Below, one piece after another: positions 15,001-58,358 of a DNA stretch of 64,000 nt. Under the pieces are notes generated by a model. That model was not told where the DNA came from. It made no database searches and worked only from the letters and a program-made list of their open reading frames with translations. The translations under genes and the position numbers were made by a program. Each line of letters opens with the position of its first letter. Position 1 is the stretch's first letter. This stretch comes from Geosiphon pyriformis uo1 (lineage: Eukaryota; Fungi; Glomeromycota), in NCBI GenBank assembly GCA_016748015.1, contig JAAOMT010000512.1:1684893-1748892 (forward strand), written 5' to 3'.

Positions 15001-16721
15001 TCAGGTTGCGTGTTAGTCTGGTGAACAATTTTTTGGCTGGGATGGTGAAGATCTTTCTGGGCAATGAGCTTACTTTGGTAAACAACCTCCCCACTGTATT
15101 TCATAGTCCTGGTCGGTTCCCGTTGTCCTCTGTTCTTGGAAAGTCTCTGTATTTTGATTCGGTCAAATCTCTTAAACGTTTTGATGTCGCTTTTGGTGAT
15201 CGGCTTTTTGATAAGAAAGGTGTTTTGTTGGATTGGAAAACTTTTCGTCGTTGGAAGAGGTTGGATCCGCGTGGCCTTGTGCCTCACTGGTTCATGATTT
15301 CTTCTGAGTTTTTGAAAGGTCAGAGTTACTCATTTTCTGGTTCTGTTGGCTCAGCAGAGAAGCTTGGTTTGGACATTTTGGGGTCTGGGGAATTTTCTGC
15401 GGTTAAAGATGGATTGCATGACATTTGGTCAGACTCTTTTGAAGTTTTCACGGATGGGTCTTTGAGGAATGCAGGCTCTGCTGAGGTCACCTGTGGTGCT
15501 GCTGCGTACTTTCCGGTCTTGGATATGAGCATTGGTGTCGCTGTTCATGATCTTTTGTCATCTATTATGGCCGAGTTACAGGCTGTCGCTTTGGCTTTGG
15601 AGTGTGTTCTTTCTTCAAGTACTGTGGTGTTGCGTCTTAACAGCCAGGCTGCCATTGACGCATGTGTGTCTGAGATGTCTTTGGTTGCTCTTGATTTCCG
15701 TAATCAATGCTGGCTGGAAAAGTGTCATATTTTCAATTTGGTCAGGGACAAGGATCTTAGTGTAAGTTGGGTTAAGGTAAAAAGACACTCTGGAATTCCT
15801 AGTAATATGAAAGCTGACTTGGCTGCTGGGGCTGCCTCTGGGTCTCCCTTTTCCCTTTGTGCTGATGTGCGTGAACATTTTCTGGTTGCTGAGGGTGTTG
15901 CTGTTTCTGGTAATGCCCGTCATTTTGTCAGAAATATTTTTCGATCGATTCATTGTGCTCATTGGGAAGCTGGGCCTGGTTGTGATGTAGTTCCAGATGC
16001 GATGATTGGTTGCATAGACTGGGTTGTCACGGCGAAGGTGTGGCATCCTGATTCTCATATGCTTGCTGAGTTCACTAGCCGCACATCCTCATCACTTTGC
16101 ACTTATGTTATGAAGGCTGTGCACAGGAGGTTGCCGGTGGCCATTAGGAAGAGGTTGTATGATAAATGCTACCCTAGTGTGTTGTGTTTGTTTTGCGGTG
16201 AGGTGGAGTTCTCTGACCACGTTTTTACTTGTGTTCATGAATCTGGCATTCATGGTGAGATTTTGGTGGAGACTTCTGCTCGTTGGTCAGCTTTGGCTAG
16301 TGGTTCCTCTGCTTCTGCTGTGTTGCGGGTTTTGTCTCAATATTCCATTGATGTTGGGCTGTACACTTTGGTGTGCAAAGGGTTTGTGCTGGAGGAATGG
16401 TATGAGGAGGCTTGCGATGTTTTTGAGGATAGAAAGGTGGCCACTGCTAGGATTGTTGATTATGTCAGGTTCGTTGTTGGTTTACATCGTGCTAAGGTAT
16501 GGTTGGCTAGAGCCAGCCACCGGGTGGTGATGGAGAAGGCTGATCTGGTCTGTGATGTTGGTGTTGTTTCTGGGCTCCCTTGTGGTGTGTCTTCGGTTTT
16601 GTCTGATGGTGTTGTGAAATTGCTTGGTTTGGCCGATTCCTTTGCTGTTAGCTTTGGTCGTCAGAAGCCTTTTTTCTTTTCTGGTCTGGGTGGCAGTGTG
16701 CAAGTAGTTATAGATGTGTAG
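12040..16721 (+). pseudogene. LINE ORF2: AP endonuclease - reverse transcriptase - RNase H - CCHC finger; one frameshift near 12875
   Basis: APE: TCNVRGIN, TETKL, TIDYIF. RT: RPIALIE, QDIRKAYDSV, GLDQGEVFSP, AFVDD, YLGI. RNase H: VFTDGS, AELQAV, KVKRHSGI. Finger: CLFCGEVEFSDHVFTC. Confidence 0.95.
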
Positions 16722-17078: not shown

Positions 17079-20000
17079 CTACGCAGCTATATGAACTGAC
17101 ACTGATTCACCTATACCTGAAAAGAACAAGCAAGCCTTGTGAAAACCAAAATGAACACCTAAAGCACTAGTAATGCCAAGTAATCTAACCACCCCTGCAG
17201 AGAACCTCGAAGCCAAACCATGAACTGAGACGACGGCTGAACCATCTAGTGGGATCAGTCTATTCTTCTCTATATACGCACAATGCTTAGCACGAATCAA
17301 CCAGACATCCTTCCTGAAAGCAAAACCAAGAGAGTGCACAAACTTGACAATCTCCAAAACAGCAATTTTGGGGTCATGAAAGACGGAAACAGCCTCGCTA
17401 AACCATCCATTGAAAACAAAGCCCTTAAAAAGAGCCATAGACACAGAGGAATCAAAAACACTGGATGACAACAGCTGCAATATATCTGAGGAGGAGTAAG
17501 ATGAGCCAGAAAGCGCCTTTCAGGACCCTACATGAGAATTCAGCAACTGGCACCGAACAGACTTGTCAACCTTGCAAGAGAACACATAATCCGACACCTC
17601 CATCTCACCACAATACAAGCACAACACACTAGGATAACGTTTATCATAGAGGCGCTTCCGAACAGCAACCGGCAGCCGATGGTACAAAGACTTTATAAAA
17701 TAAGTACGCACACTGGATGAATACCTGCTGGTGAATCCTGCAGCCATGTGCAAATCAGGATGCCACACCAATGACGAACGGGGCCAATCAACCTCGGAAG
17801 ACAAGCTGCCAACCAAAACCCCAGAACCGGAACCAACCTCCCATCGCGCATGACAAATAGAACAATAAATATCACGAACAAAATGCCTCAAATTTCCAGA
17901 AACAACATCACCATCAGCTGCCAAGAAGTGCTCACTCAAGCAAGGGGGAAGATACCAATTGGAGAGAGAAGCGGCATCAGCAATCGTATCGGCATGCTCG
18001 TTTCCCGAAACACCAGAATAACTCTTCATCTTGCGAAAGCTAACCCTTAACTTCTTACTGCAAATTATATTGACAATATGACAACGTTCAACCCAACACT
18101 GATTACAAAAATCAGGACACACCAGATCTAACTCTAACCTGCAAGCATTCAACGCCGATTGACTATCTGAGAACAAACAAACAGAGCTTGACGGGGGAAC
18201 ACACTCCAGAGCTAAAGCAACAGCCTGCAATTCTGCCAAAGTAGACAACATCAAACCCAATACCCTTACTCCCAAACCCAAACCAATGTCCTCAAAAAAA
18301 ACAGCAGCTCTACAGCCAACTGTGCCAAGACCACTAAGAGATCCATCCGTATACACTGACAGGCTGCTAGCACCGGTCACCAAGAGATGATCACGAATAG
18401 ACACAAATCCACCGGACTCAAGAATGTTCAAAGGACTACCATCCCTCAAAACTAGAGACTGATCGCAAGAAGATCTCACACTATTGAGAAACAAAACAGA
18501 ATGCTTGAACCACTCAGGAACTGGGCCATGGGAGTCCAATTTCTTCCACTGCTTGAAAGTGTACCAATCATAGACAGCACCATAACGGTCACGAAGTTGA
18601 TTCACAAAGACAATACCATACCACCGAAGGGAAGGGAGAAACTTGAGAAACCTTGACTCGCCCAGAACCTCAGACATAGGCACTCTACCATAAGACCAAA
18701 AGGAACTAACCAAAGAGCCACCCAGAGACACATTGCAATTGACAAGAACACGAACCATGCCTGCCAGAAAGTTATTAGAAGCACTGACACAAATACAAAC
18801 AGGAGAACACAACGGATGAACAGGGTGCCAACACAGAACTTGCAAGTCATGAGACCTGTGGGAAAACAAATGACCCAAGATACCACCAGAGTTCGCAAAA
18901 CCGACAAGAGAAGCGATCTTGTTTTCAAATTGAACTTGAGAAAATGACTTCAAACCATAAAACAAAGGGTGGTAAACCACATCATTGGGGAAATTGAGTG
19001 GCAAACCGGACTTGAGCTTCAAACCTTTATGAATTAGAGCATCCCACTTTCCGCACACACCAATGGGAATAAAACTGAACTGAGTTCTATAGCTGACTAT
19101 TGGATGCAGAACTGCCAACACCAAATACAAAAACTGCTTATCTGAGACCACCTTCTTCAACACCAGATTGGTGAAAAAGCGAATGTCCGAATGCGCCTTA
19201 GCCAAGCTAGGCTTCGAAAGACCCTCAGTCGATAGAAAAATGCCCAGATATTGGTAAGATTCTCCCTTTTTGGCAATAGAAATGGGTGAACTGCTGATAG
19301 ACAGAGAGGGACTGCTGACTCTGCTATTGATAGGAATGGCTACTGTTTTGTTGTTGTTAATAGAAATGTCATTGATAAAAAAAAATTCACTAGCAACATC
19401 GAGAATATGTTGAGTAGCCATCTGACTGCTACCAACCCAAATCGTATCATCAACAAAAGCACCAGTGGCAAAAAAAGAAGAAAACCCAGCCTGGGATTCG
19501 GAATGACCATTCTTGGAAACAAAGTGAGAGTTCAACCTATACCCACATACACTCTCCTGTCTCTTGACTTCGCACAAAAGAGGATCATAAAATATGTGCC
19601 AGAGAAGAGGAGAGAAGACCTCTCCCTGGTCCAAACCATCGTGCACATGGTAACTGCTTGTCAGTCCAAAATCAGTTATGACTCGGTTGGTACAATTTCT
19701 ATGAATACCACCAAAAAACCGAATAAATTTACTACACATCTTAATTTTGACCAAACTTTTCTCAAGATGTTCCCAGTCAACCAAGTCATACGCCTTCCGC
19801 ATGTCCTGCAGAACCAGCCATAGCTCTCTGTTTTTTTCCAAAGCATCTTTAACCACCAAACCAGTTGCAAAAATAGGGGACTGGGTTGTCGTACCCTTCA
19901 AAACTGAGAAATTAGCCCCTCAAAGCATGTCAAAAGTACTGCACGCCAAAGAAATCCTGTCCGAGAGTATCTTAGAAAGAACCTTGTGAGCCGTTTTGAT

Positions 20001-21761
20001 CAAGACAATAGGACGTGTGTTCGTTAAAACACCTTCCTACTCATAAGGTTTCGGAATCATCGAGACCCATGCTTCTTTCCAAAGGCCGGGCACTGATTTA
20101 CTAGACAAACAAGAGTTCAAGAGCACCAACAACATATCCAAAACTGACCTATCACAATGTTTCCAAAGCTCATTTGAAATACCCAACAAACCAGCCGCTT
20201 TACCCTCCGGAAGATCAGAAATCACCCCAAGGAACTCATCATACTCAATTGAACACATAACACCAGAAAAAGCTTCGTCAAAAACATACTCCAATGGCTG
20301 ATATTGGAGGCACCAATCCTCCGAGACATAATTGACCACCCGACACTTCCTAGTCCAATCTTCCATGATTGCATCAACCTTGGACTTGACCTGCTCAGGT
20401 TCCAAAATCAATTTGTCATCAACTACCAAATGATCCAGCACAATCTTATGAAACGAGCGCTCCAACACACTTCTTATTGTATGATCTTTATTTACCTCAA
20501 AGCTTTCCATCCTCTTGTCTATCGCAGATCTGATGCATGCTTCTTTAGCACTCTGAAATTCAATGAGATTGGACTTTCGATAAGATTTCCTGGCACCAAA
20601 AAGAGCAGAACAAACACGACCAGATTCCACACCAGAGTCCACCAGATCCTGAACGACCGAAGCCTTGACACTGTCCAGAGTAGCCCAACACCTTATGAGA
20701 GAAGCAAAATCTACAGCACACCCCACATGAAATGCCTTAATAATTTTTGAAACCAAAAGCTCCAACTTGTGGAACCTTGACGACTCTTTGGTAAAGACAC
20801 CATCAAATTCCTTGAACCACTTTTTCTTGAACACTTCATTAGCCGAAAGAATCATTATTCTGCGAACAACATCCCACATTGTGTCCAAATCCAAAAACTT
20901 CACAGAAACAGCAAACTCATCTGAGAACATTGTTGCATTAGCCAATGTGGCACACTTAAAATCGATCCATTTACTCTCATTAGCACTCTTGAAATCAAAC
21001 TTCCATCTGTCTCTGTTTGCTTGCTTGCGAAAAGAGCTCAATTGCGTATTCAGAAGCCCACTCAGACCCAAAGACACTGAAACAGCTTGATGATCCGTGT
21101 CAAAGTGCTCACTGACACCCAAAACATTACGATGTACTATTGCATTGACCAGATTTGGAGAGACAAACACGTAATCAATTGTTTTTTTGACACCCCTAAA
21201 ATTCTCCCAAGTGGGCATTTTCACAGTTGGGCTCCCGACCAAAGAGTTAATCAATCCCAAATCAAGGCACTTCTTGAAACTTGCACACTTATGAGAGCCG
21301 TTTTCATTAAAATTGCCACCAAGGATAACAAAGGAGGACTCGTTAACAGCCTTTGCGACAATAGAGTTGATTTCGCCTGTCTGAAAAAACTGGACCACCG
21401 AAGAAGCACCAGCGTACAGTCCCAAAATTGACACAGAGAGCCTGTTCTTGAAAAGTAACTTGATAGACAACAACTGACCTGGGACCTTAGACACCTTGCA
21501 CACATGTCTCGCCAAAGAAGTGTTCATAACTACTGCCATACCAGCACCCAGATACCCAGAATCCAAACCAGTAGTAAACACCCGAACCCCATCAAACTTG
21601 TTAATGATCCAAGGCTGAACCTTACCTTTTAACTTAGTTTCAGTAAAAATTGAAATTGAATTGTCCATGTCCTTATGCCAACAAATGACATCACTCTGCT
21701 TCACAGTGTTGTTCATTTCTCTAACATTGCATGTAACAACTTTCCATACTAATTCACTCAT
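17079..21761 (-). pseudogene. LINE ORF2 (APE-RT-RNase H-CCHC), about 1560 codons with three in-frame stops and no frameshift
   Basis: ORFs 20037-21761, 17520-19901 and 17079-17480 share one frame. Stops at 20037 (TAG), about 19920 (TGA) and 17520 (TGA). Motifs AFVDD, VYTDGS, SDSQSA, CLYC. Confidence 0.95.
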
Positions 21762-23548
21762 TGGAAGGAGAATTGGAAGTTCGCACCACCAGCCAAAGCC
21801 AGACTATCGAAATGAGCGGACAAGATCAACACAGATTTGGAGAGGCCTTCCAACATATTTTCTAACTTGACAACATGGGGGGATGTAGATGAGTCCACAA
21901 TCGTGGCAGACTCATGGCCATCAACCATACTCAAGTCCATATCCAATGTCACATTACTTTCCGAATTCTGTGGTGTGGCAACTACTGGCAGCCGGCATCC
22001 GTAACTAGGCTGGGGAACCACCAACACAAGCAAATCTAACCTCTTGGCCAATCTATCAATTTGTTTTGCAAGACTAACAAGACCATCCTCGATACTGACC
22101 AGTCTTTTTTCCAGATCTTTTGCAACAGGAGGGGTAGGTTTACCATCGACGACGGAACCAGAACTTGCCTTACCACCAGAGAGAGAGGGAGCAGAGGGAG
22201 CGCTAACCACCGATGCCCAAGTTTTACCACCAAAAGCCAAAGGACGAGAGATAGGCGCAGATCTCCTTGCATAAATTTTCGCCAATCTGGATTGGTCCTG
22301 AACCAAAAGGGGAGCCTTTCTGCCTCCTGCAATTCCAGCACCCTTGATTGTTCTGCAACCATGACCAAATTTCTCACAAACTGCACATGAAGCTAAAAAA
22401 AGACGGGACCAACGGAGACCAAAGCTCTTTATAACTGAAGTCGTTGCCATTGCATTAACTAATTCCACTTCTGAGCTAAAACACACAGTGGCACAGCGGG
22501 CACAAGAATAACTGACAGGATTGTGATCGATGAAGCAGGTTTTCCCACCAATAGAACCAATAAAATCCCACAAATCATGAGCAATAGTTCCTATGAGAAG
22601 AGTATATAGCAAAGCCCTAAACTTATTCCTGGCATCCCACGATTGTTTGTCGATATTAGCCCTGGTCACCCGAATCATGTCCTTCCCAATAAGGATAGAC
22701 CACTTAGAGGCCAGAAAATCAGCCTGGTCTTGATCTTCTAATTCGATGATCGCCTTTTGCCATAAACCCACTAGCTGCATTTTGATCGACTTAATGATGC
22801 CAAATTCAGCTACAGCCGCATGCACAGCCTCCAAAGAAGTTCCCACAGGAATTTCTTTCAGCACAATTGCCCGATTTGTACGATTGTTGACAGGGCGCTT
22901 GAGATCGGTGTTTACCATAACACCACGGTCATTAGCCAGATTAGCTGCAGTCATCATCGCCTCTTCAGAAGTAAAAGTAGTCTGAATGATTCCACCAAAT
23001 TTTGAGGGGGTAGAGGCCCCCCCAAAACCATTTACACCTGAAAAGATTTTTCTGACAAAATTGACTTTTTCCTGAGAGGATTTACCCACCACCGCCACCA
23101 GATCAATATCCAAAGTGAAAGACTTGTGAACAGGCACCTGAACGGATGGCTTAACTGGAAAAGAAGGCGGTAGAAGAAGAGACTTATCCAACACATCACC
23201 ATCTGCATCGACAGTACCATAATCAATCACACCCAAAGGCTTCCCTAACACCTTCTTGGTCTTTACACGCAAACTTTTAGGTGTTTGATCAAGATCCTCT
23301 CCTGTGAAAGCACCATTCTCACCATAGTCAACACTGGTTTCCTTAACCAAGCACTCCTCCTCTATGTCAATACTCTCAGATTCAGTAGTATCACCCACCT
23401 CAGAACCCCATGAACAATTACCAAGAGCTTTATCAGCAACCTTACTATTATCAACACTCTCTGCTAATACACCATCTTTTCTCTTCTTCCTCGATACAAC
23501 CATCTTAAAACCACCCTCAGAACCAGAAACTTTGGTAGCCTTCTTCAT
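21758..23548 (-). CDS. LINE ORF1 nucleic-acid-binding protein (596 aa)
   Basis: Open frame homologous to copy C ORF1 (SWGSEV, TPSKF, KEIPVG, LVGLWQKA, FGGKTWA). Its stop overlaps the ORF2 ATG. Confidence 0.9.
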   Translation of the reverse strand: MKKATKVSGSEGGFKMVVSRKKRKDGVLAESVDNSKVADKALGNCSWGSEVGDTTESESIDIEEECLVKETSVDYGENGAFTGEDLDQTPKSLRVKTKKVLGKPLGVIDYGTVDADGDVLDKSLLLPPSFPVKPSVQVPVHKSFTLDIDLVAVVGKSSQEKVNFVRKIFSGVNGFGGASTPSKFGGIIQTTFTSEEAMMTAANLANDRGVMVNTDLKRPVNNRTNRAIVLKEIPVGTSLEAVHAAVAEFGIIKSIKMQLVGLWQKAIIELEDQDQADFLASKWSILIGKDMIRVTRANIDKQSWDARNKFRALLYTLLIGTIAHDLWDFIGSIGGKTCFIDHNPVSYSCARCATVCFSSEVELVNAMATTSVIKSFGLRWSRLFLASCAVCEKFGHGCRTIKGAGIAGGRKAPLLVQDQSRLAKIYARRSAPISRPLAFGGKTWASVVSAPSAPSLSGGKASSGSVVDGKPTPPVAKDLEKRLVSIEDGLVSLAKQIDRLAKRLDLLVLVVPQPSYGCRLPVVATPQNSESNVTLDMDLSMVDGHESATIVDSSTSPHVVKLENMLEGLSKSVLILSAHFDSLALAGGANFQFSFQ

Positions 23549-23699
23549 AACAGCAATAACAGAGCCAACAGTGGCCTTGTAATCGAAAAACGGTTTTGAT
23601 TTATCGTACTGAATGGTAAAAAACTTCTTTCAAAAAAACTTTTGACTCTTTTTTGGGAATTTTGGACGAAGAAAAGAAAGAAGTTTTTTTCCTTAATAT

Positions 23700-28965: not shown

Positions 28966-30029
28966 ACATAAGTCTGTTAGTATTAATATTTTTTATTATT
29001 ATGAATTTAATGAGTAAAGTCCAACTATTATTTAGTACATAAAATCAAATTAAGTAGATCAAACTAAATGGAGCTTACACACTTGCTACATATGGCCAGC
29101 CACTTGGGTTGGACAAGATTACACTACATGTTTATGCAAACATATATATTATCACCTAAACCAGAAAAAAAATGACACAATTTGCACCTGTTAAAATTAA
29201 CCATAAAAGATTTTAACACACCAAGCATACAAACCACTCTATCAGACAACAGAGACATTAAGCAGTGAGACAAGCCCAAAATTAAACCATCATCCTTGAC
29301 CAAGCCGGCTCTTTTTATATTCACTCTATGCTTAGACCTAAGAAGTTATATTTTAATATGATGCAGTTCTACCACAAACTTAACATAATTAACAAGAGCC
29401 AAAATAGCATTTCTTTTCTCTTCAAAGCTCAAAACAGCCTTAGCATGCCAATTGCATAAAACAAAATTTTTACAAATCACAGTATATAAGCCCATGTCTG
29501 AGAAACATGAGGAAAAAGAGTGCAAAATGGCCAATGTAAATAAGCAAAAAAGACTTATCAATAATACCCACTTTTTGGCAGCTTTAGTCAAAATGTCTCC
29601 ATGAAGACCAGTATTATTCAAGCATATAAAAGCATAATCAGACAACTTTACCTCATCACACAATAAGCACAATATCTCAGGATACCTTTTATTATACAAT
29701 CTTTTCCTAATTATTATAGATAACTGTCTATGTACTGCTTTTATCAAATACATCTACAAATTAACTGACTTTCGATTAGTAAAACCAGAGAGCATATACA
29801 AATCCAGATGCCAAACCCTTGTAGTAGTATTTCAATCTATATTCTCAATCATAATACTTGAAATCATATTACAACCAGAACCAGTCTCCTAATGAGCATG
29901 GCAAATTGACTAGTATATGTTATAAACAAAATAACAAGTATTACCAGACACAGTAGTATTCTCAACTACCAAAAATTGTTTCTGAATTTCAACTGGCAAA
30001 GAAAAAAAAGAGAAAGTGGCTTTACCTAC

Positions 30030-30914
30030 TGTTACAGATGATTATTTGGGGTCTTAAATCAAATAACAAACTCATAATTTGGTATTTAATAACTGATATG
30101 ATTGCTAATATCTGAAAATTGTAGTGATCTGAAAGTTTTGGTTGAGTTTTTTGTATAATAAATAGAGATTCAAGTGTTGTAATTCATAACTTTCTAGAAT
30201 TACAATTCCATCAAATTTTTTTCTCAGTGTGATGATTATAAATTAGCCAATTAAAATAGAAAAAGAGAAAAAAAGGATTTTTCAGGAAATCCAGGATTAT
30301 TCAGGAAATCTAAGATATTTCAGAAAAGTTGAGGATTTTTCAGGAAATCTAGCAAAAAAAAAGGATTTCTTGTGTAAAGAGAATTATGTATATATAGTGA
30401 TAGCATTAGAAGGAAGAAAAGTATCTATTTCAGAATAAAAACCTCCATTCCTATCTATTCATTAATCACTTCAAGGATAATTATTATCAACAAAAGTGAA
30501 AGCATTAATTATCAAATAAAAATACACTTGTTATCATCCAACTGATGTTATTGTCATTTGTTTGAAAATCTAATCCCTCTTCAATTTATCAACACTTTAT
30601 GTTGATAAAATCCAACACTTAACTATACTGAAACAATAGCTCTTGATCACGGCTATTGATGGAATACTAACTTAATTGCCTTGGCTTAATTTTTTCATTT
30701 TCTTTTATTTTTTTTCTTTTCTTTTGTTTGTTTCTTGTTGTTTACTAATTGATTAAGAATTAATGTGCAGAGTTATCAATGTCAAAGTAACTGGTAAAAG
30801 ATCCAGAAATAAGGGTAGAACATTCGATTGAAAATAGCTTACCAGAAAGATTACCAGCCATGTATTTTTCTCTTTTTCGATTATGTATTATTTTTCTCTT
30901 TTCTAAGTGTAACA
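30030..30914 (-). repeat. 3' LTR of virus-carrying element, with internal inversion 30235-30858
   Basis: Both ends match 34196-35137 directly; the middle matches 34401-35081 as the reverse complement. TGTTACA...TGTAACA termini. Confidence 0.92.
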
Positions 30915-30931
30915 TTATCTCCTCCTTTTTA
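30915..30931 (-). promoter_or_regulatory. Polypurine tract
   Basis: Minus strand reads (GGAGCTCAATATT)AAAAAGGAGGAGATAA directly before the 3' LTR; near-identical to 59941-59970. Confidence 0.88.
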
Positions 30932-30959
30932 ATATTGAGCTCCGTCGAAATCTCCTAAA

Positions 30960-31290
30960 TTTCTCTTTTGTATCAATGTTGTTGCTGTAATTTCTATTGC
31001 TATTTTTAAATCTAATTTTTATACGTGACTGGGGTTTTTAACTATAGTGCATGTTCAGACATAATGCCCTCATTATTATCACTGAATTGAATTAATTCCT
31101 GCTCCATTGTAAGATCTAGAAGCGTGATATCTTGTTCGGTGTTCGAAGCGGAGTTTGAATTGTTGTTGGCGGAGTTTAAATCGTCGTTGTCATCAGCGGA
31201 GTTTGAATCGGGATTAAGTTCTGATTCCGATTCCCATTTGTTCTCGCTGATTGGCTCTTCTTCGAATATATGACGCATGGGAGTGGATTG
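30960..31290 (-). pseudogene. Residual Gypsy pol fragment (pre-dUTPase acidic linker + dUTPase N-terminus)
   Basis: EEEPISENKWESESELNPDSNS..ITLLDLTMEQEL..DNNEGIMSEH and DLKIAIEITATTLIQ align with 45490-45870 of Gypsy-1. Confidence 0.82.
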
Positions 31291-31487
31291 TGACTACGTC
31301 CCAATATTCTGACTCAGGGCCGTCAGGTGAGTTTTGCTGATTTATTGGTACTGTGGGAATTAGGTTTTATTGGGCTATCGGAGGTAAGTTTCCTTGTATG
31401 ATAGCGGGGTTTGGAATTTATCGGACTTCGAATGTTCGGGTTTTTGAATAATTCCCGGAGTTTGAATTGCTAGAGGTTTAACGAGTT

Positions 31488-31910
31488 TTATCGACGGTAA
31501 GTTTCTTTGTACGATAGCGGGGTTGGAATTATCGGGTTTCGAATGTTTGGGTTTTCTGAAACATATTTATCGAATAATTGATCAATAATTTGGAAGAGTT
31601 CCTTATGATGTACTGACATTAATTTATAAGCAGCAAATTTTTGAATAAAGTCTGTTTCGGTTGGTTTACTTTTTTTGAATTTATCAAATTTTTGAACGAC
31701 TTTATTATAATTATGACGGATACCATATTTAAATGAGGAACCGAAATGAGAACTAAGAATTTTTGATTCTTCCTCATTTAGGGGAAAAATAGATTTAGAA
31801 AGAAATTCACAATCATAGATTGTTCCCTCACTTTCTATTTTAAGGAATGAGGTGCCATTATATTTTAACTCAGTTAATTTAACTATATCGTATATTGTGT
31901 TTTGTTTCAT
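31488..31910 (-). pseudogene. Frameshifted C-terminal continuation of the viral RdRp (motif E and thumb region)
   Basis: Overlaps the end of the 458-aa ORF in another frame. LKIESEG..CEFLSK lies at the expected distance after GDD, then YGIRHNYNK and AYKLMSVHHKELF. Confidence 0.8.
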
Positions 31911-33255
31911 CCAGGGTCATATAGGAATTTGTTCTACAACCTAGGATATTATCATCCCCATAATTTGATAAGTCATAAATTTCAAAAAATTTATCATAAG
32001 ACAAACCGGTAGATTCATGAAATAGGTGGCTTAATATTATTCCAAGAGCTAAACAATTAGTCTGACTAGTTGAGACGCAGCCAGTAGCATTACCTCGCAA
32101 TTTTTCAAGTATCTCACTAGTTGAACCATTAAACATTGGATCGGAATAGTTCTGCTTGTAAGATAATCGAATTAGATTTGAAATGTTTTCATACTGTGTA
32201 TGATTCCTGTAACCCCACTCCCTTAATTCAGCAATTGAATCCATTACTTGCTTGTTAAAGGTTGAGTCAAAAGCACTCATATCCAGGCCAAAAACATACT
32301 GGTAATTAAGATAACGTTTGAATAATGGTAAAAGTCCGAAACCAGTGAGCGGACGCCCAACTTGTGCTGGGGTGTTGTTATATGTGAACCGATGATCAGG
32401 CTCATAAGCAAAAAGTTGTTGTGTGAAGTAAGTAAAAAAAGGAGCTCCTACTATTGATCTCAACTTTTTGAATTTTTCCCCAAACAAATACTCCATTTTT
32501 GGAAAAGTGTGTGGTACTGCGGCAATTTTATTTAGGTTCGATAGCAAGTACTTTGTGAAAGATGTTATTTCAGAACGAGGTATTTTGTTGAACATTGCCC
32601 TCCTCTTTTGGAACCTATTGTTTTTAATAGATCCGAACCCAGCAGAGAAACCAAGCTTCCACTTTCTAAAAAACTTCTTGGGATGTGTTAATCTGGAATT
32701 ATCTAACATCGGAGCATAAACCCTTGACATTGTATCAAGCATAGCACTTGAATCATAGTCTTCAAACTCAAACTCAGGTTGGCCATATCTTGAATTTGAT
32801 GTTAATAACCTCTCAGTTGTGAAATGATTTCCGGTCCACTCGGCACTGGGGGCATTGATATCTTTTAAGTTATTATTAATGACTAATTCATTATACTCAT
32901 CAGAAAGTTTTTTATACTCTTTTGATTGAATAATAGGGTATGACTGGTTCCCACAGGAGAACGTTGTGGTGTACAACCTATTAATTGAAGTTGATTGCAA
33001 CTTAAGTGGTAAGATTATATTTGGGTTATTTGAACTAAAAACATGTGTTGTGCGGTTAACCTCGATCTCACCCTGTTTACCAAATATTTTCTCCATTTCT
33101 CTCAATGTCCATTCTACCCGGTATTGCTGGTCGAACAAATCAGTTGGGATCTGTGGGAGGTCAAAATAATCATCATACTCACCAAGTTTGAATAAGAAAG
33201 GGAAAGGGGACTTGCTGGAAAAAAATTTTCCTTTTGGAAGTTTTTTATTAAACAA
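31879..33255 (-). CDS. Endogenous viral RNA-dependent RNA polymerase core (fusarivirus-like, Durnavirales)
   Basis: 458 open codons with ordered palm motifs: F (KLRSIVGAP), A (DMSAFDST, 32260-32283), B (GNATGCVSTSQTN, 32056-32094), C (NYGDDN, GDD 31951-31959). Upstream NSRLT..KW and downstream HRF...TP.QVG.PL.G blocks recall fusarivirus replicases. No RT YxDD context. Confidence 0.9.
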   Translation of the reverse strand: MFNKKLPKGKFFSSKSPFPFLFKLGEYDDYFDLPQIPTDLFDQQYRVEWTLREMEKIFGKQGEIEVNRTTHVFSSNNPNIILPLKLQSTSINRLYTTTFSCGNQSYPIIQSKEYKKLSDEYNELVINNNLKDINAPSAEWTGNHFTTERLLTSNSRYGQPEFEFEDYDSSAMLDTMSRVYAPMLDNSRLTHPKKFFRKWKLGFSAGFGSIKNNRFQKRRAMFNKIPRSEITSFTKYLLSNLNKIAAVPHTFPKMEYLFGEKFKKLRSIVGAPFFTYFTQQLFAYEPDHRFTYNNTPAQVGRPLTGFGLLPLFKRYLNYQYVFGLDMSAFDSTFNKQVMDSIAELREWGYRNHTQYENISNLIRLSYKQNYSDPMFNGSTSEILEKLRGNATGCVSTSQTNCLALGIILSHLFHESTGLSYDKFFEIYDLSNYGDDNILGCRTNSYMTLDETKHNIRYS

Positions 33256-34106
33256 ATAAAAATTTTTTTAAAAATGTACTTTTGTTTAGGCGATAGGAAA
33301 ATAAACCAATAATAATAAAGAGATAAATAGAATAAAAATTGGAAAAAAGTTATTACACAGATCAAGTGGTAATTATATCTGATATTAAATTTATATAATT
33401 GGATTTGGTAATAATTAGTTATTAAATACATATATATACCTTTACCGATAATAATAATATATACAATTAATAATCTAGAATTAAAGAACCTTATATATCT
33501 ATGTATTAATGCAAATATGGCAAATAAACAATATAATTGGAAATCTAATTTAATTTTGTATAGATACCAATATTGTTTTCTTTCTCAATAAGTATTATAA
33601 ATTAATGTTGGTAGGTACAATGAAAGTAATAGTGATAATATTAAGAGGTTTTTAACCAATAATATACTGATTAATTGAATAAGACTGGATATTAAGTATA
33701 ATAATAATTTAATTATTAAAAAGAAAAAAGTAAATAATAGGCCTAATATGTAATTAATGATTCTTTTAAAATGTGAAATAAAATTTGTATTAAGGTAAAT
33801 TAATAAGAAACTAAATAAAATAAGGTACTCAAGTAATAATAAAGAGAATTTTTTTGCACAAAAGACACAAAATAATATTTAGTGAAAATTCTGTAAGTAT
33901 GTTAAATTACTTAAAGAACCTGGGTTTTTTTTTACATTACCAAACAAAATTAATTTCTGGTTTTAATAATCTGATCACAAGTTTTTTGTAATCTCTAATT
34001 AAATAGTTCTTGGGAAAATTAGAGAAAAAATTGAGGTAAAAAGATATAAAGACTTTAAAAATGTGATTGAATAATTAAACAAATTGGTTGAGAGTGGTAA
34101 ATTCAT
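33256..34106 (-). pseudogene. Hydrophobic multi-TM N-terminal part of the viral replicase ORF
   Basis: Manual translation from ATG 34106 stays in frame with ORF 33114-33431 for about 280 codons with only 5 stops despite very high AT (FSLLLLEYLILFSFLLIYL..ILGLLFTFFFLIIKLLLYLISSLIQLISILLV..). A frameshift in an A/T run near 33260 joins it to the RdRp frame. Confidence 0.7.
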
Positions 34107-34175
34107 AATATTATGACATATATCTAGATGGTTGCTAACATAATTGTTGTTGGTACTGGTTCTTTATAGAATTAT

Positions 34176-34193
34176 ACCTTACAAAAAGCACTA
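34176..34193 (-). promoter_or_regulatory. Decayed primer-binding site
   Basis: Minus strand reads tt-TAGTGCTTTTTGTAAG right after the 5' LTR, matching tt-TGGTGCTTTTTGTAAG at 40785. Confidence 0.8.
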
Positions 34194-34195
34194 AA

Positions 34196-35137
34196 TATTA
34201 CAAGTAATTATTTGAGGTCTTGAATCAAATAACAAATCTGTAACTTGGTACTTAATAATTGATATAATTGGTAATATCTAAAGATTGTAGTAATCTAAAA
34301 GTTTTGGTTGAGTTTTTTGTATAATGGATAGAGATTTAAGTGTTGTAATTCATAGCTTCTCAGAATTGCAATTCTGTCAAATTTTTTTCTCAGTGTGATG
34401 GCCAGTAATCTTCCTGGTAAGCTATCCTTAATTAAGTGTTCTACTCTTATTTCTGGGTCTTTTACCAGTCACTTTAATGTCAATAACTCCATACATTAAT
34501 TTTTAATCAATTAGTAAACAACAAGAAACAAACAAAAGAAAAGAAAAGAAATAAAAGAAAATAAAGAAATTAAGCCAAGATAATTAAGTTAGTATTCTGT
34601 CAATAACTGTAATCAAGAACTATTGTTTCAGTATGATTAAGTGTTGGATTTTATCAACATAAAATGTTGATAAATTAAAGAGTAATTAGATTTTCAAACA
34701 AATGACAATAACATTAATTAGATAATAACAAGTGTATTTTTATTTAATAATTAATGCTTTTACTTCTGTTAATAGTAATTATTCTTGAAATAATTAATAA
34801 ATAGATAAGAATAGAGATTTTTATCCTAGAATAGATGCTTTTTTTGCTTCTAATACTATCACTATATATACATAATTTTCTTTACATGAAAAATTTTTTT
34901 TCTTTGCTAGATTTCTTGCAAATTCCTTGATTTCTTGAAACATCTAGGATTTTCTGAAAAATCTTCAACTTTTTTAAAATATTTTAGATTTCCTAAATAA
35001 TTCTGGATTTCTTAAAACATTTAGGATTTCTTGAAAAATCTTTTTTTTCTCTTCTTTTATTCTAATCAGCTAATTTATAATTATGTATTTTTTTCTTTTT
35101 CAATTATGTATTATTTTTTTCTTTTCTAAGTATAACA
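34196..35137 (-). repeat. 5' LTR of virus-carrying element (native orientation)
   Basis: Block order (short repeats, TATATATAG, CTGGTAAAAGACCCAGAAATAAG, end) equals that of LTR 39865-40784; followed by the PBS. Confidence 0.92.
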
Positions 35138-38100
35138 CTACCATTATATTAGCCTTAATATTGTTTGACACCCCTGAATGTCCTTTAACTTTCACTTATT
35201 TCACCAAAATGTTTTTATTTCTAAGAAGATTGACTATATGCAATTGTTCAATCCAACAATAATTACAGAAGTCAGACACAACCAATGAAGTATCAGACAC
35301 ACAAGCATTAATAGCAGATTGACTGTCTAAGTAAAAAACCACAGAACACAAAGATGAAACACACTCCAAAGCCAAGGCAACAGCTTGCAACTCAGCCATA
35401 ATGGAAGACAGAAGCCTATTTACTATCACTCCAATACTCTTTTCTATCACTAAAAAGTAAGCAGCCACCCCACTTACTACTTTAGCCAACCTAGCATCCT
35501 TCAAAAACCCATTAGTATAAATTTCTATAAAATCAGACAAATCTCTAACAAACTATTATGCACATCAAAAAACACCTCAGACTTTAAAACATCCACTACA
35601 GACAATCTAAGAACTACAGCAGATCTGACTTCTAAAGAAACATCTCTACTTAAAAACTTAAATATCAACACAAACCAACAAGATGCAAGGCCTCTTGAAT
35701 CCAATTTCTTCTACTATTGAAATGTCTTTTAGTTTATCATCTTCTCTTTTTTGTCCAAGAGTTTGTCACCAAAAACAATATCAAACTACTTTAAAGACAA
35801 AACCAAATTATAGTACAAGAGCTATTCTAAGATATAAAACATTGAAAATCTACTAGACCCATAAAAAGCATTAGGTAAATTATTTGCCAAAGACAATTCA
35901 TTTTTCAAAAAAATTTTCCCCACTCCAGCCAAAAAATTGTTCACTGGGCTAATATGTAGCCTAATAGAAAATTGCAAAGAATTTAGAGAGAACCACCTTA
36001 GAACTTGCAAATCCAAAAACCTATGCTCAAATAAACGACCTAAAACACCATAGACATTGGAAAAAAAAATCAAAGCAGCCAGCTTTCTTTCAAACTGCAC
36101 TTATTCAAAAGGTTTCAAACCATATAAAGATAGATAATATAAAATCTTATTGGAAAAGTCACATAGTAAACTGGTCTTGGTTCTAAGATCTCTTCTGACT
36201 ATTACATCCCATTTGTGACACATATCTGAAGAAACAAAACTAAACTAAGTTTTGTAGCTGACAATTGGCTGTAAGACAGTCAAAACCAAGTATGAAAATT
36301 GTTTATCCATAATAGCCTTTTTTAACACAACATTAAAAAAAATCTGACATCCACATAAGCTTAAGCCAAGCTAAGCTTAGAAAAGCCTTCAGTAGACAAA
36401 AAAATGCCCAAGTATCTGTGCACCTCACCTCTTTTAGCAACCAAAATTGGCGAATCATTAATCAACAGAAAAGCAAACTTAATACTTTGATTGATTGGAA
36501 TGACTACTGTCTTATTATTATTGATTAAAATGTTATTGATTTTAAAGAACTCACTAACAATATTCAAAATATACTGTGTAAAAATTTGACAACTTCTAAC
36601 CCATATTGTATTATTAACAAAAACATTAGCAGCCAAAAAAAAAGTTTTCTCTTTAATAGCTTTAACTCTGCCAGACTTTGTCACAAATCTAGTATCAATT
36701 TTGTATCTGTACAAGTGTTTATGTCTTTTTATCTCATACAAAAGTGGATTATAGAAGATTCTCCAAAAAAGTGAAGAAAAAACCTCATCCTGATCTAAAT
36801 TATTATGTACTCTATAATCATTTGAAAGACCAAAATCTGTTATTACTCTATTAACCCAATTTTCATGAATGTTGTTAAAAAACTTGATAAACTGACTACA
36901 CATTTTGATGCAAAGCAAGTTAGCCTTTAAATGATGCCAGCTCATTGAGTCATAAGCTTTGTATATGTTTTGAAGCACTAACCAAAGCTTTTTATTTTTT
37001 TTTAGAGCATCTTTAATAACCAATCCAATAACAAAGATAGGAGATTGAGTTGAAATATCTTTCAACACTAAAAAATTATCACTGCAAAGAACATTAAATT
37101 TGCTGCAAGCCAATGAAATCTGATTAAAAAAAATTTTAGACAAAATTTTCTGAACTGTATCAACTAATATGATAGATCTAATATTTATCAAAATGCTATT
37201 CCAATCATAAAGTTTTGGGATCATCAAAGCTTATACTCTTTTCCAAAGAGTTAGAATCTTATCCAAAGTCAAACACAAATTCAACAGCTTCAAAAGATAA
37301 GCCAACATCCTATTACCACAATGTTTCCAAAGTTTGTTGAGTATTTCTGACAATTTAGCAGCTTTATTATTTAGCAGACTATTAACAACTAAAGACAATT
37401 CTCCCATATCAATTTCTTTTATCATGCCAGAGAAAGTGGTATTATCCATATAATCCAGAGGCATATACTGACAAGACCAAAGATCAAGCATCTTTGGAAG
37501 CACCAAATATTTTCTTGTTCACTCTTTCATGATCTTATCAACTTTGAGTTTCACTTCATCAGGATCTATCACCAGCTTATTATCTACTACCAAATAGTCC
37601 AACACAACTTTATGAAATAGATGTTTCAGAATGCTTTTTATCATATGCTCTTTGTTAGAACTGAAATTTTCCATATGATGATTGATAGCCTTCCTAATGG
37701 CTGTATTTTCAGCAACTTTTAATTCATAATATTTAGACCTTTAATACACTTTTTGTACTAACAACAGATGCCTAATTAAATTCATTAAACTTGCATCATC
37801 TGAAATCATGACAATAAACTTGAATGCCTCTATCTCATTAATAGATGACCAAACTTTAACAAGACAGTCAAAATTTAGAAAATTTTCAGAATTTCAACTC
37901 TTTACAATCTTTGCAATGAGCCACTCTAATTTAAAAAATTTTGAAGATTGTTTATTCCTCAAACAATCATATTTACTATACCAAATCTTAAAAAACACTG
38001 CATCAGCAGCTTGTACTACAGTCTTTTCTAATATTTTCCATATTGTATCTAAGTTTATATTGTTCTTTGCTTTTTCAAACATATTTGATCTAACCAACAA

Positions 38101-39864: not shown

Positions 39865-40784
39865 TGTTACTCATAAAAAGAAAACAGATATAGGGAAATA
39901 GTAGACCAATAAGCAAATAGTATGTAGCACATGAGCACATTGCTCAGCAATGTAGAGCAATGACAGAAAACATGACACATTGCTCAGCAATGTAAAGCAA
40001 TGTCAAAAAACATGGCACATTGCTCAGCAATGTAAAGCGATATTAAAAAATTAGGACACATTGTTCAGCAATGTGAGCATTGCTTAAGAAATCATAGCAC
40101 ATTGCTCGAGAATGTAAGTGATCTTATAGAACATCAATTATATATATATAGCAGTAGTATTAGAAGTAGAAAAGAACAGAATCTTTCCATTAGAAACCTC
40201 TCAGTTTAGATTTTATCCAAGCAACTTTCTATTCACAAATATTAATAAATAATTATTCACCATTTTAATCTACTCTTTGCTATTAATGCTTCATGTTGAT
40301 AGTAAATAATACTTAATCACACTGGAATAATAGCTCTTAATTATGGCTATTGACAGATACTAACTTGCACATTGCCTTAGCTCATTTCTTATTTTCTTTT
40401 ATTTTCTTTTATTTTCTTTTATTTTCTTGATTTTATTGTTGTATACTAACTGATTAAAGATTAAAAGTGCTGAGTAATTAACATCACAGATAGCCTGGTA
40501 AAAAACCCAGAAATAAGGGTAAAATTATATATATATTAACAACTAGTTTACTAAAAGGATATGACTGCCAGAATAAACTGGTGACCAAGCTGAAGACAGA
40601 AATTGGGAACACAACTTACCAACCAACTACATCATCATTGAATCTCTGTTTATTATACAAAAGACTCAACTCTAAAACCTTCAAAAATAACCAACATACC
40701 AATATTATTAGTATTATTAAGATATTGAGCACCAAGTTACAGATTTGTTATTTGATTTGAGACTTCAAATAATCATCTGTAACA
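39865..40784 (+). repeat. 5' LTR of Gypsy-1
   Basis: TGTTAC...TGTAACA; direct repeat of 59971-60865. Confidence 0.95.
39935..40118 (+). repeat. U3 tandem array, about 5 x 40-41 bp, with palindromic core ACATTGCT-C-AGCAATGT
   Basis: Units start at 39935, 39975, 40015, 40056 and 40097; repeated in the 3' LTR near 60040-60220. Confidence 0.9.
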
Positions 40785-44139: not shown

Positions 44140-47100
44140 ATGTACACTGATGTCAAAGTTGATGGCCATTCCATTAAACTGATTCTAGACAATAGATTAG
44201 TTGGCAGCATCATTACAAAACAACTCATAGACCAATTAGGTTGCCGAGTTGATCACACTGCCCACACCAGAATCATAACTGCTGATGAAACAACCAAAAC
44301 TCTCATTGGTGAGATTGATAACTTCCCTTTTGAAGTCAATGGCATCATTATTCTCATCAAAGTCCTAGTGATAGAAGCAACCCAATATCAGGCATTAGTA
44401 GGGAATGACTGATTATCTAAAACCAATGCCATACTGAACTGGATGATGCAAGAGCTTCAACTGAGCCAAAACAGTCAACACACACGTGTACCAGCCATGT
44501 GCAGCCATTTCAAGACCACTAACTCGATAACACCACTCATTGAATTTGAGAAAGAAGAAAAGAAACCTACCTGGGAAGCTTACCAAGTTTTCTGGGCCGA
44601 CACAGAACACAATGAGCTGCTGCCAGTACCTTTGTGAGATGACAACAGCAAAAGAAAGCAGAGAAAAGAACTTACCTGGAATGCCAACCAAAACTGGGAA
44701 ACCAACCATGATTCAGAAGAACCAGCTTGGGAATAAGAAGAAAAGACAAAAAAAAGGAAAAAGGAAGGAAGAAAGATTAATATCCACCAGCACCACCACA
44801 TATAATTCTTATACTACACCACAACAATCTGTTTATTGTCACCCAAAACTGGTGTGTGTCAATTGTGACAAAAAATTGTCATCAATGGGTGCTTACTGTA
44901 GTGACAATAAAGAGTATACTTTGGCAACCAAATTCTATTGTTATCCATGTGTCCTTGAACGTTTTGGAAGACCAAAACAAATAGAAAAATGGGATAACAA
45001 ACTCTGCTTGGCTTGTGGAGAAACTTTTCTGGACAAAGAAATATGGAACAACATTCCTAGATGAGGAGAAACATGCAATGAATTGTGTCAATACATGATT
45101 CTCATAAGCGACTGGATAAAAAAAAACACCCATAGACACTGCTTAGAGACAAGCCATCAAACATCTGGATGGGTGTCCACATGATAATGACAAAATTTGG
45201 TGAATAGCACTCACCAAAATTGAAGAAGCGACCCTAAAAAAATAAAAATGATTAAAAATAACCCACCTGAACCTATAAAACTTGACTAGAACTCAGAACC
45301 AGTTATAAATCTCCTAGATCCAGAACAATTCTATGAACATTATTAAGAGCTAGCACCTATTAAAGAAAAACAAGAGCAGTGTTTGGAGCAATTGAATACT
45401 TGGTTATGTCAACATTGCTTAATTTTCTGTGACTTTCAATATTGTAATGAGTGTGACCTTATTTACAATCCACCATTATGCATGATCTACATGATCCCAG
45501 AAAAAGAACCAATCAGCAACTGCATATTAGAATTGGAATCAGTTTTCAATCTCAATTCAAACTCCAACAACAATGATGACAAAAACACCAGTTCCAGCTT
45601 CACATAATATGGCAACAAAAATATCAATGATTTAGACTCCAATTCAAACTTCGAAATATACATTGCACTTCTTGATCTCTCTAAGAAGCAGGAACTCAAA
45701 TAGTATAATAATAATAATAAAGATATCATGCCAGAATGTGTGCATGATACCAATGCAGAGTTTGATTTGAGATATCTGGGAAAAAAAGCCATCAAATTGG
45801 AACCAAATTCGCGCACATGTATTGATCTCAAAATAGCTCTGGAAATTTCAGCAACAATTATGGTTCAATTAGCATCTAGGAATAGTTTAGCGAAAAAAGG
45901 AATCAACATCAGAGAAGGAATAATTGATGTGAGATACATAAGAAATATCATTGCCATGCTACAAAATAACTCAGAAAAGGCCTATATTATAGAGCCAAAT
46001 GAAAAGATAGCACAGGCAATATTTTTACCTCTGGTAAAAATAGCTCAGTTAGTTTCAATGAGAAAGAGAGAAGAACTAAGTATAATAGCAAGAGGAATAT
46101 AGGGATTTGGATTAACAGGTAGAATAGATATACCAATAAATATAGCAAAGAAAGAAATTGCTAACAAAGGAGAAATTATCTCAACCTGTCAATCAATTTC
46201 TATTCCACCATATGACCAGTATATGTTAGCCATAAAAAGGAAAGTAAAGAATCAACCTCAGTTGTTTGAAGCAGAGGCCACTATTTGTGAATCAGAAGAA
46301 ATTGGACTCACTAATCTCTATATATCAGCCAAAAGCCCCAAAAATATCAAAATTCCCATCTACAACACAATGGGAAGTGTTATTGAAATACCAAAAGGAA
46401 CCATTATTGGATATTTAACCACCAAAGTTAAGGATCAACCACCAAACCACATTCCAGATTTTTCACAGCTTTGTGAATATGTGAACATCACATCACAAAC
46501 CATTTATGGACAAAGCGAATGTTATCTGCTCTAACTAAAACAATTGAAACAGATAAATATAGGAAATCTAGACCCACTCCAACAGATGCAACTAAAAATG
46601 TTACTCAACAAATTCAATAACATCTTTGCCAGTGAAAATGAATTTGGCAGAACCAACATAATTCAGCATTAGATTAAAACTGGAGAGACAATGCCAATTA
46701 ACAAAAAGCATACAGAGTACTACCAGCTAGCCATGATATTATTTGTCAAGAAATTAACCGAATGCTTAACAATGAGCTAATTCAGCCATCAATGAGCTCA
46801 TAGTCATTACCAGTGGTATTAGTCCAGAAAAAGAATAGAAAGATCCATTTCTGTGTGGATTATTGGAAACTGAATGGAGTGACTAAAAATGATAGCTATT
46901 CAACTCCAAAGATCCAAGAACTATTCAATGCTTTTGGAGAAAATAAATGGTTCTCAACACTAGATTTAGATAGTGGTTACTGGCAAGTAGCCATGGATCC
47001 AGCCAACAAAGAAAAAACAGCATTTACCACAAGAGAAGAGAATTTTGAGTTTGAAGTCATGCCATTTGGTTTGATGAATATTCCAGCAACATTCCAACGG

Positions 47101-50437: not shown

Positions 50438-50680
50438 TTTGGTGCTCTCCCACAGAAATAACACAGCAACAACAAATTCAAAGTAACAACCACACCAGAC
50501 ACAACAACTCTAAAGTATCATCAGTCAATTTACACCCACTGCAAGCAAAGATTTAACATCCCAGACGGAATTGAAGTTGTCAAGAAATCAGTATACCAAT
50601 ATATTAAAAATTGCATCAACAATTATTTTTTTGGAAATTACAACATTTTAGAAATTAGAAGCAACCTCTACAATAATCTA

Positions 50681-51960: not shown

Positions 51961-52529
51961 ATTACAAAGAGACTAACAAAACAGGAGTAATCAACATTAT
52001 TCTTTATCACAACAATCTTATTACCAATCTCCACCACCAATCTATTATTTACCAAGACCACAAAATCAAAACAGTTACTATCCACCAGCTTTACAACCAA
52101 TATAGCAACAATATCAGCAACCTTTACCAATTCAGCTATATCAAACACCACCCACTTAACAATATTAAGTACCAGCAAGAAAATTGGTTCAACATAACCA
52201 ATTTACACACCAAAATCAATTACAGAGTAACAACAACAGAATCAATCCAAATAACCAGTTGGTTCCCCAAAATTCTGGTCAGCAAAAACCCAATCACTAT
52301 CACACTCAACCCAGTTATCTTACAATACCAGAGGAATCGGATTTTCAACAAACTGCACTTTCTGAAGGTAAAGTTGCAGCACCAAAATCAAACCCTTCCA
52401 ACCACACTATTCCACCAGCTCAAATTGCCCAAAATGCCAATCTGTCAGATATATTTCCATTTGAATTTGAAGTAAATGAATCACCATTTCTGCTTAGTAA
52501 TGCAGCAGTCAATGAACAGAAAACAATTA

Positions 52530-58345: not shown

Positions 58346-58358
58346 GAGGAGGAGATTA

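Follow-up and report, generated by a model that had tools for sequence, protein, structure and literature searches.

A Durnavirales RNA polymerase fragment inside a defective Gypsy retrotransposon of the fungus Geosiphon pyriformis

Background

The locus analyzed here is a Gypsy-type long terminal repeat (LTR) retrotransposon that holds a fragment of an RNA-virus RNA-dependent RNA polymerase (RdRp) gene, located at positions 30030-35137 on the minus strand of a 64,000-nucleotide stretch of Geosiphon pyriformis DNA from contig JAAOMT010000512.1 (hereafter, the window). Its closest described counterpart is eBxnv-1 of Bursaphelenchus xylophilus, which the available part of its description presents as a single-copy, weakly expressed nodavirus RdRp lying between Bel/Pao LTRs, with copy-choice as the proposed origin (PMC5177903). 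Both loci enclose a positive-strand RNA virus RdRp between two LTRs, with a primer-binding site (PBS), a polypurine tract and no gag, as a single copy, and the layout is in this respect already known from the nematode. As far as that account goes, eBxnv-1 differs in its host, in its Bel/Pao vehicle with pol remnants and in a nodavirus RdRp that keeps its catalytic sites, whereas the Geosiphon locus combines a fungal host, a Gypsy element and a Durnavirales fragment with a broken frame, both of whose junctions can be mapped against free relatives, and further shows an LTR inversion, a sharply bounded mutation-free zone and cryptic splicing. The mosquito Pao-chuvirus hybrid Anakin likewise places a non-retroviral viral gene inside an LTR element, but the accessible part of its description reports a glycoprotein gene in many copies, some of them complete, amplified by retrotransposition (PMC7642597), as opposed to the lone defective copy of a replicase piece seen here.

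Integrated RNA-virus genes have also been described in fungi, including totivirus-like genes in yeasts (PMC2805616) and durna-like RdRp genes in Mucoromycota genomes (PMC7482067; PMC12548735). Like the Geosiphon locus, these are RdRp-derived DNA in fungal genomes, some of it transcribed, but in the portions of these sources available they are presented as old genes, some under purifying selection, with no paired LTRs described (the term 'LTR' has no occurrence in PMC2805616); at the Geosiphon locus the vehicle is still visible and the protection from mutation extends beyond coding sites. A literature search returned neither a fungal RdRp between paired LTRs nor the Geosiphon locus itself, which is weak evidence given that the same search also missed eBxnv-1, and two supplementary files of PMC12548735 hold no match to KAG9293952, 'Geosiphon' or 'G9A89'. 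Novel features are the fungal host, the derivation from an unnamed, coat-bearing lineage, the crossovers that could be mapped, and an inverted LTR next to a protected and probably transcribed zone. The locus is an unusually readable record of the entry into a genome of an RNA virus that lacks a DNA stage. It also makes the Glomeromycota, the group to which the mycorrhizal fungi belong, the likely hosts of an environmental virus lineage that has no name.

Results

The insert is a piece of a Durnavirales positive-strand RNA virus RdRp gene, and hence a non-retroviral endogenous viral element, spanning about 2.6 kb (31546..34139, minus strand) and collinear with nucleotides ~2010-4703 of a free relative, contig L002 (7426 nt). 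Its core is an open frame of 462 codons from stop to stop (31882..33267, minus strand; first Met at 33096) that carries RdRp motifs F, A, B and C, with the GDD at 31959, and matches Pfam RdRP_1 (PF00680) with an E-value of 6e-14. A library-wide protein search yielded 218 matches at E 0.001, headed by three full-length relatives (P0003, P0004 and P0005; 77, 61 and 44% identity), all of them RdRp-helicase proteins; beyond these three, identity does not exceed 37% among the 150 matches listed. An earlier reading made from the letters alone (the sequence-only reading) had taken the polymerase to be non-retroviral, and this holds, the best matches being viral RdRp-helicase proteins and not reverse transcriptases or cellular proteins. 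The predicted RdRp structure has a mean predicted local distance difference test score (pLDDT) of 86.7, and its five best fold matches are fusarivirus RdRps, at 20-24% identity. Similarity resumes past a frame break near 31900 in a continuation of the RdRp beyond the GDD (31548..31904, minus strand; 74% over 125 aa to P0003 689-813); of the motifs previously listed, F, A, B and C are thus present in the open frame, and motif E corresponds to a motif-E-like stretch in the next one.

Upstream of the RdRp frame, on the same strand, lie a decayed hydrophobic and predicted membrane region of the viral replicase (33270..33890) and the decayed end of an upstream viral coding region (33894..34124), which matches L002 2030-2260 at the protein level (tblastx, 36% over 77 aa). 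Within the latter, a motif scan locates a degenerate motif at ~33915-33941 that resembles the DxExNPGP motif of the relatives, which we take to be 2A/StopGo; L002 has two such motifs and the insert holds a decayed copy of the second. Nucleotide identity to L002 is 71.5% over 33247-31546 (~1.7 kb). Because of where it maps on L002, the insert is an internal piece of the virus, beginning inside the upstream coding region and ending ~140 codons past the GDD, before the helicase, and several features of the sequence-only reading have to be revised accordingly: the insert is not the 5' part of a viral genome, the ATG at 34106 proposed as its start falls within the upstream viral coding region, and viral similarity runs from ~34139 to ~31546 instead of from 34106 to about 31490. 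Nor is it a single decayed frame, since the best frame of 34139-33250 contains 5 stops in 296 codons and the frame changes near 33250 and again near 31900. Its orientation in the sense of the element is confirmed. Free relatives were found on four contigs in metagenomes and seven in viral contig collections, three being common to both; none of 350 candidates proved to be a shorter homologue of the kind expected of other endogenous fragments, and the remainder of the window holds no coat-protein or helicase remnant.

The element that encloses the insert is a defective copy of a Gypsy LTR retrotransposon. It has TG...CA ends at 30030 and 35137 and is flanked by a 4-bp target-site duplication, CTAC, at 30026..30029 beside the 3' LTR and at 35138..35141 beside the 5' LTR (both given on the plus strand). 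The insertion lies in a long interspersed nuclear element (LINE), the flanks forming one continuous LINE RNase H frame across the empty site that corresponds to the RNase H region of an intact LINE at 12864-16721. All remaining parts are on the minus strand: a 942-bp 5' LTR (34196..35137), heavily decayed by C>T and G>A changes; a decayed PBS with the retroelement leader (34140..34195); the polypurine tract (30915..30930); and an 885-bp 3' LTR (30030..30914). The PBS, the leader 3' of the 5' LTR and the purine tract 5' of the 3' LTR all match a neighbouring Gypsy element, so that the complete LTR-bounded unit previously proposed is borne out in its ends, duplication, leader and purine tract. 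An Rfam search gave no match, and no tRNA was found.

Between the insert and the polypurine tract lie pol-linker and dUTPase scraps with internal deletions (30960..31300, minus strand) and a stretch of repeat-family interior (31310..31560, minus strand) that contains a 74-bp direct repeat (31376-31448 and 31489-31560) and is covered by many contigs of sequencing run X1 with other letters. The scraps match the neighbouring element at 45500-45736 (tblastx, E 9e-9) and 45824-45857 (blastn), where the open reading frame (ORF) is a dUTPase (PF00692). This upholds the dUTPase half of what had been read as gag/dUTPase scraps, together with a pol-linker part; the gag half receives no clear support, since for 31300-31560 a protein-level test against the region upstream of the neighbour's gag gave a score no better than the mean of shuffled sequences (equalled or exceeded by 97 of 200), and comparison at the nucleotide level was borderline (72.5, the highest of 100 shuffles being 71.5) in one of the four regions tried. 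The element itself lacks gag, protease, reverse transcriptase, RNase H and integrase, which related neighbours carry in that order, with dUTPase preceding the reverse transcriptase in the outer one. Other copies of the family depart from the sequence of this element at 31047 (in 22 contigs) and at 30960-30962 (in 39), which indicates deletions in the element at these points. In the neighbour, dUTPase precedes reverse transcriptase, RNase H and integrase, and here the dUTPase scraps are found on the 3' side of the virus; these three domains were therefore lost independently of the viral insertion, and the notion that the virus simply replaced gag-pol is not supported.

Both junctions were examined on contigs aligned to the locus from four sequencing runs, comprising 2927 contigs at 95% likeness and 1926 at 80% for run X1, 7 for X2, none for X3, and 1 and 2 short contigs for X4; coverage gaps in X2-X4 (e.g. 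X2 on the LTRs and 33292-34230) were not used as evidence. A single 2731-bp X1 contig spans 31482-34212 with no differences, extending 60-70 letters past each virus/retroelement junction at a depth of 86.6, compared with 88.4 and 91.5 for flanking contigs. The LTR-virus unit is accordingly present in genomic DNA, with the reservation that X1 is possibly the sample from which the window was assembled. At 80% likeness this bridging contig alone covers nearly all of 31586-34138, with a small rise at 33584-33694, while many different X1 contigs pile up on the retroelement parts; this is consistent with a single-copy viral part, though it does not constitute a measure of copy number. At the 5' junction, ~55 nt past the LTR, 19 contigs of the family share the leader as far as 34140, beyond which their sequence differs. 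At the 3' junction (31546..31560, minus strand), viral similarity reaches 31546 and an X1 family contig reaches 31555, which leaves an overlap of 10-15 nt whose sequence is similar to L002 and equally to copy two of the 74-bp repeat.

The two LTRs match directly only over their first 55 bp (51/55) and last 205 bp (176/205), and the middle portion matches when flipped (543/624 inverted versus 357/598 direct). Neighbouring LTRs share the arrangement of the 5' LTR, which identifies ~625 bp of the 3' LTR (30235..30859, now on the plus strand) as the inverted part and leaves its TATA-like box (30389) facing into the element; the joint 30235/30859 is carried by one X1 contig, marked 'opposite strands', with three letters that fit either side. 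The plain direct LTR repeat reported previously must be corrected in this regard. Once the segment is flipped back, LTR identity is 87%, the final bases of the 5' LTR being decayed. Reverse transcription renders both LTRs identical, and the inversion must therefore postdate it. Differences between the LTRs comprise 109 transitions and 5 transversions and are asymmetric (72 versus 37, p 0.001); dating by a standard clock was rejected because this ratio would mislead. Two neighbouring LTR pairs, at 39865-60865 and 49470-59368, have transition to transversion ratios of 92:2 and 40:3, and the differences between LTRs affect not only CG but also CA, CT and CC contexts, which suggests a broad cytosine-deamination process in Geosiphon pyriformis.

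A region extending over ~30800-33270 has escaped the C-to-T decay that surrounds it, silent sites included. The observed-to-expected CpG ratio (CpG o/e) is 0.04-0.17 in flanking old repeats, and the 5' LTR contains no CpG; the ratio reaches 1.33 over 30915-31545, which takes in the dUTPase scraps, and 0.43-0.94 in the RdRp part, compared with 0.79 and 0.45 in the free relatives L002 and L001. Beyond a fairly sharp edge near 33270, the interval 33271-34145 has a GC content of 0.20 and a CpG o/e of 0.24. Measured against L002, 34124-33894 carries 43 G/C>A/T transitions versus 9 in reverse (p 2e-6), and the adjacent 5' LTR shows the same one-way loss, at ~30% of its G/C sites. The RdRp block, by comparison, has 92 versus 95, with no excess at third positions (59 versus 68 against L002, 55 versus 61 against L001). 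Of 156 alignment columns that do not vary among four relatives, 5 are changed in the insert, a proportion similar to those of free viruses (4/155 and 9/160), and none of its 33 stop-prone sites has become a stop, for which P ranges from 0.002 to 6e-6 at the LTR loss rates (~17% and ~30%). The CpGs kept in the non-coding scraps have undergone C>T or G>A change in other copies of the family. Protection that takes in silent and non-coding sites is most simply explained by an absence of methylation-driven deamination, and not by selection on a protein, and we infer that the protected zone is unmethylated. Bimodal CG methylation of repeats is described, in the part of the source available, in Rhizophagus irregularis (10.1101/2021.03.30.436303).

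Transcription of this zone is indicated by run X2, which has the same sample code as X1 and is labelled 'DNA?'. Its contigs reproduce the locus without differences over 30989-31358 and 31827-33291, intervals that lie inside the protected zone or just reach its border, and two of them, 57 letters long, skip 94 nt (32978-33071) and 103 nt (32978-33080), with CT..AC ends on the plus strand; in the minus-strand reading they are GT-AG introns that use two donors, GTGAGA and GTAAAC, and have their acceptor in common. Spliced joints are not listed among X1 contigs. The skipped stretch aligns codon for codon with free virus, so the introns are cryptic, and their removal points to sense transcription by RNA polymerase II; the protected zone is probably transcribed. 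The case for transcription rests on these joints, the thin X2 coverage having provided the first hint of an RNA library. Neither intron length is a multiple of three and both shift the frame; the frame break near 31900, just past the GDD, is unchanged in X1 and X2 contigs. For these two reasons a full polymerase is unlikely: motifs A-E do not share one frame with the C-terminal part, and most likely the locus, as read from its sequence, makes no working polymerase. The only named close match, P0001, is the spliced gene model G9A89_019290, labelled Geosiphon pyriformis and annotated as a hypothetical protein, whose exons match the window letter for letter. This model (643 aa) joins the RdRp, retroelement scraps and a short leading piece resembling the flanking LINE.

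The source lineage was placed with FastTree on 142 RdRp cores, for which 141 of 154 candidates were retained and 13 excluded because of their length or the lack of a GDD, and with an IQ-TREE quick tree of 46 hand-picked rows, including as named fusarivirus anchors Sclerotinia sclerotiorum fusarivirus 1 and a 90%-cluster mate of Penicillium roqueforti ssRNA mycovirus 1. Both trees agree in assigning the insert to a small, long-branched clade of unnamed environmental viruses (Shimodaira-Hasegawa-like approximate likelihood ratio test, SH-aLRT, 99). In the 46-row tree this clade falls outside a 28-row clade with both anchors (SH-aLRT 98), although where fusariviruses and hypoviruses part it branches with the former, and it does not group with named hypoviruses. 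The earlier suggestion of an undescribed lineage is upheld in so far as the lineage is unnamed; membership in the Fusariviridae is not supported, the clade being separate in both trees relative to two named anchors.

Like the Fusariviridae, the free relatives encode one large RdRp and helicase protein, as in P0003-P0005 (PMC11094367), in genomes of ~7.4-8.9 kb; they differ in a protein identity of ~20-35% and in the small ORFs that precede the replicase in L001, L002 and L003, unlike the 5'-proximal replicase of fusariviruses with its SMC-like second ORF, although the family profile allows up to four ORFs, which makes ORF order a soft criterion (PMC11094367). Some relatives, unlike the Fusariviridae, also carry 2A-like motifs and a tobacco mosaic virus (TMV)-like coat ORF. 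The coat domain (PF00721) is found in the 5'-proximal ORF of two of the three long contigs (L002:109-699, E 9.5e-21; L003:172-693, E 2.2e-8) and in none of L001's three upstream ORFs, so that the label 'capsidless', which is how fusarivirids are described (PMC11094367), is unsafe for this lineage. The single-sequence fold of the L002 coat ORF is poor (pLDDT 39.5), the best hit of a PDB sequence search is a tobamovirus coat at E 0.2, and the Atlas yielded no usable match. Alignment between the L002 and L003 coat ORFs is weak, its score being reached by 6 of 300 shuffles. Searches with P0005 and with the coat ORF of L002 as queries retrieved no further viral contigs.

On the evidence of these sequences, then, the source virus has a fusarivirus-type replicase yet appears to lie outside the Fusariviridae on tree position and coat gene; that the captured virus itself carried a coat gene is inferred from its relatives only. 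Viruses of the L002/L003 type are possibly an undescribed family with putative rod-shaped particles, and their contigs, being in IMG/VR, may already bear a group label. The combination of a fusari/hypo-type replicase and a TMV-like coat gene in one lineage bears on the origin of capsidless fungal viruses. Capsid-encoding viruses basal to Hypoviridae (f.0066-f.0069) are similar in being coat-bearing relatives of capsidless fungal viruses, but the portion of the source available assigns them flexible-helical or jelly-roll coats and reports TMV-like coats in other orders (10.1101/2022.02.15.480533). A separate observation concerns L002:2216-2290, where a stop occurs ~10 codons past the 2A-like motif and the long replicase frame is open in the minus-1 frame; the insert copy also has a stop near the corresponding place, L003 reads through, and the arrangement could be programmed frameshifting or an assembly error.

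Discussion

We consider it probable that this locus arose through copy-choice capture of an internal 2.6-kb viral piece by a Gypsy element, and that its RdRp part persists as a protected, probably transcribed relic. Copy-choice is favoured because it explains the sense orientation of the insert, its position just past the leader, the overlap at the junction, the deletions and the matching decay of the LTR and the 5' insert, and capture by template switching, as originally put forward, remains the best mechanism. Reverse transcriptase would have jumped between co-packaged retroelement and viral RNAs: minus-strand synthesis would have left the retroelement RNA at the 10-15 nt microhomology (31546-31560), copied ~2.6 kb of viral positive-strand RNA and switched back to the retroelement template in the leader, at 34140. 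Reverse transcriptase, RNase H and integrase would have been lost through additional jumps or subsequent deletions, making the copy dead on arrival, and proteins supplied in trans would have integrated it, leaving the CTAC duplication. Methylation-driven deamination would then have eroded the 5' LTR together with the initial 0.9 kb of the insert; the 3' LTR would have inverted after reverse transcription, and the RdRp zone would have stayed unmethylated, probably through RNA polymerase II transcription.

Several observations weigh against this reading. A duplication and paired LTRs do not prove that the virus was inside at integration, and the inversion shows that the copy was later rearranged. 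The junction overlaps are short, a few letters at the 5' end, and are judged against relatives that have diverged by 30%, and the X1 contigs are not independent if X1 is the sample behind the window assembly. The spliced contigs are 57 letters long, at a depth of ~5, strandless and from one sample that is itself labelled 'DNA?'. Finally, CpG has been retained (o/e ~0.5) in the younger LINEs of the window too, so that age as well as protection can raise it, and no clear gradient of protection is seen along the 3' LTR (inverted versus non-inverted, p 0.06).

The strongest competing explanation, which we nevertheless regard as unlikely, is that the Gypsy element integrated first and that viral cDNA was later patched into it by microhomology-mediated break repair, with deletion of the interior. 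The single viral copy seen, the other deletions in this element and its inversion with a three-letter microhomology are all in keeping with such a history, and short junction overlaps suit end-joining equally well. Patching does not, however, account readily for a 5' insert that has decayed about as much as the adjoining LTR, or for an insert that lies in the sense of the element and begins right past its leader, and neither poly(A) nor a second duplication flanks it.

Slightly less likely again, and compatible with either route of capture, is the retention of the locus as a source of antiviral double-stranded RNA, in which sense transcripts and antisense transcripts from the inverted LTR would prime silencing of the virus. 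Silent and non-coding sites are protected alike, spliced sense forms are indicated, the inverted segment aims a TATA-like box into the element, and small-RNA silencing of repeats is described for Rhizophagus irregularis in the accessible part of one source (10.1101/2021.03.30.436303). Against it, AATAAA signals occur at 30434 and 30515, just downstream of the inverted box, and an unmethylated region would explain the protection without selection. A complete working antiviral memory, in which a captured piece of a rod-coat Durnavirales virus, an inward LTR promoter and an unmethylated state would combine to yield both-strand transcripts feeding silencing, is more doubtful still as judged from the sequence. 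A passive transcribed relic is more likely than either an antiviral RNA source or a protein-coding gene; the sharply bounded mutation-free zone does provide one locus at which fungal retention of viral DNA as a defence can be tested.

The freshness of the 3' half might instead stem from gene conversion by a younger copy of the same chimera, which we hold to be improbable. The young LINEs of the window are CpG-rich and the edge of the fresh zone near 33270 is fairly sharp, as conversion would have it, but no second copy of the viral part exists among the contigs at 80% likeness, and the donor would have to have been lost or filtered out. Marginally less credible is a domesticated protein-coding gene under purifying selection, as implied by G9A89_019290, which treats the RdRp in this way. 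The 462 open codons, conserved motifs and confident predicted fold speak for it, as do fungal precedents of selected viral genes in the part of the source available (PMC2805616); the frame break past the GDD in X1 and X2 contigs and the frame-shifting of both observed introns speak against it, as do an X2 contig that runs unspliced through two of the model's introns inside 31827-32978 and the protection of third positions and non-coding DNA to the same extent as coding sites. An assembly chimera or contaminating viral RNA, conceivable in a repeat-rich region with X1 perhaps the source sample, is very improbable given a separately assembled contig that bridges both junctions without differences, and stops, a frame break and one-way C>T decay unlike those of a replicating virus.

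Neighbouring repeats

The region 39865-60865, which had been proposed as the probable helper family, is not supported as a literal helper: on the plus strand it comprises two nested decayed Gypsy elements of a sister subfamily, the outer with LTRs at 39865-40784 and 59971-60865 (outer LTR 74% identical) and the inner at ~49470-59368. The outer neighbour has an ATGC duplication and carries its dUTPase between protease and reverse transcriptase. Two younger LINEs, with reverse transcriptase and RNase H, lie tail to tail at 9941-16721 (plus strand) and 17079-23629 (minus strand); their GC content is 0.43-0.44, with the CpG o/e of ~0.5 noted above, and one of them has an open frame of 1285 codons.

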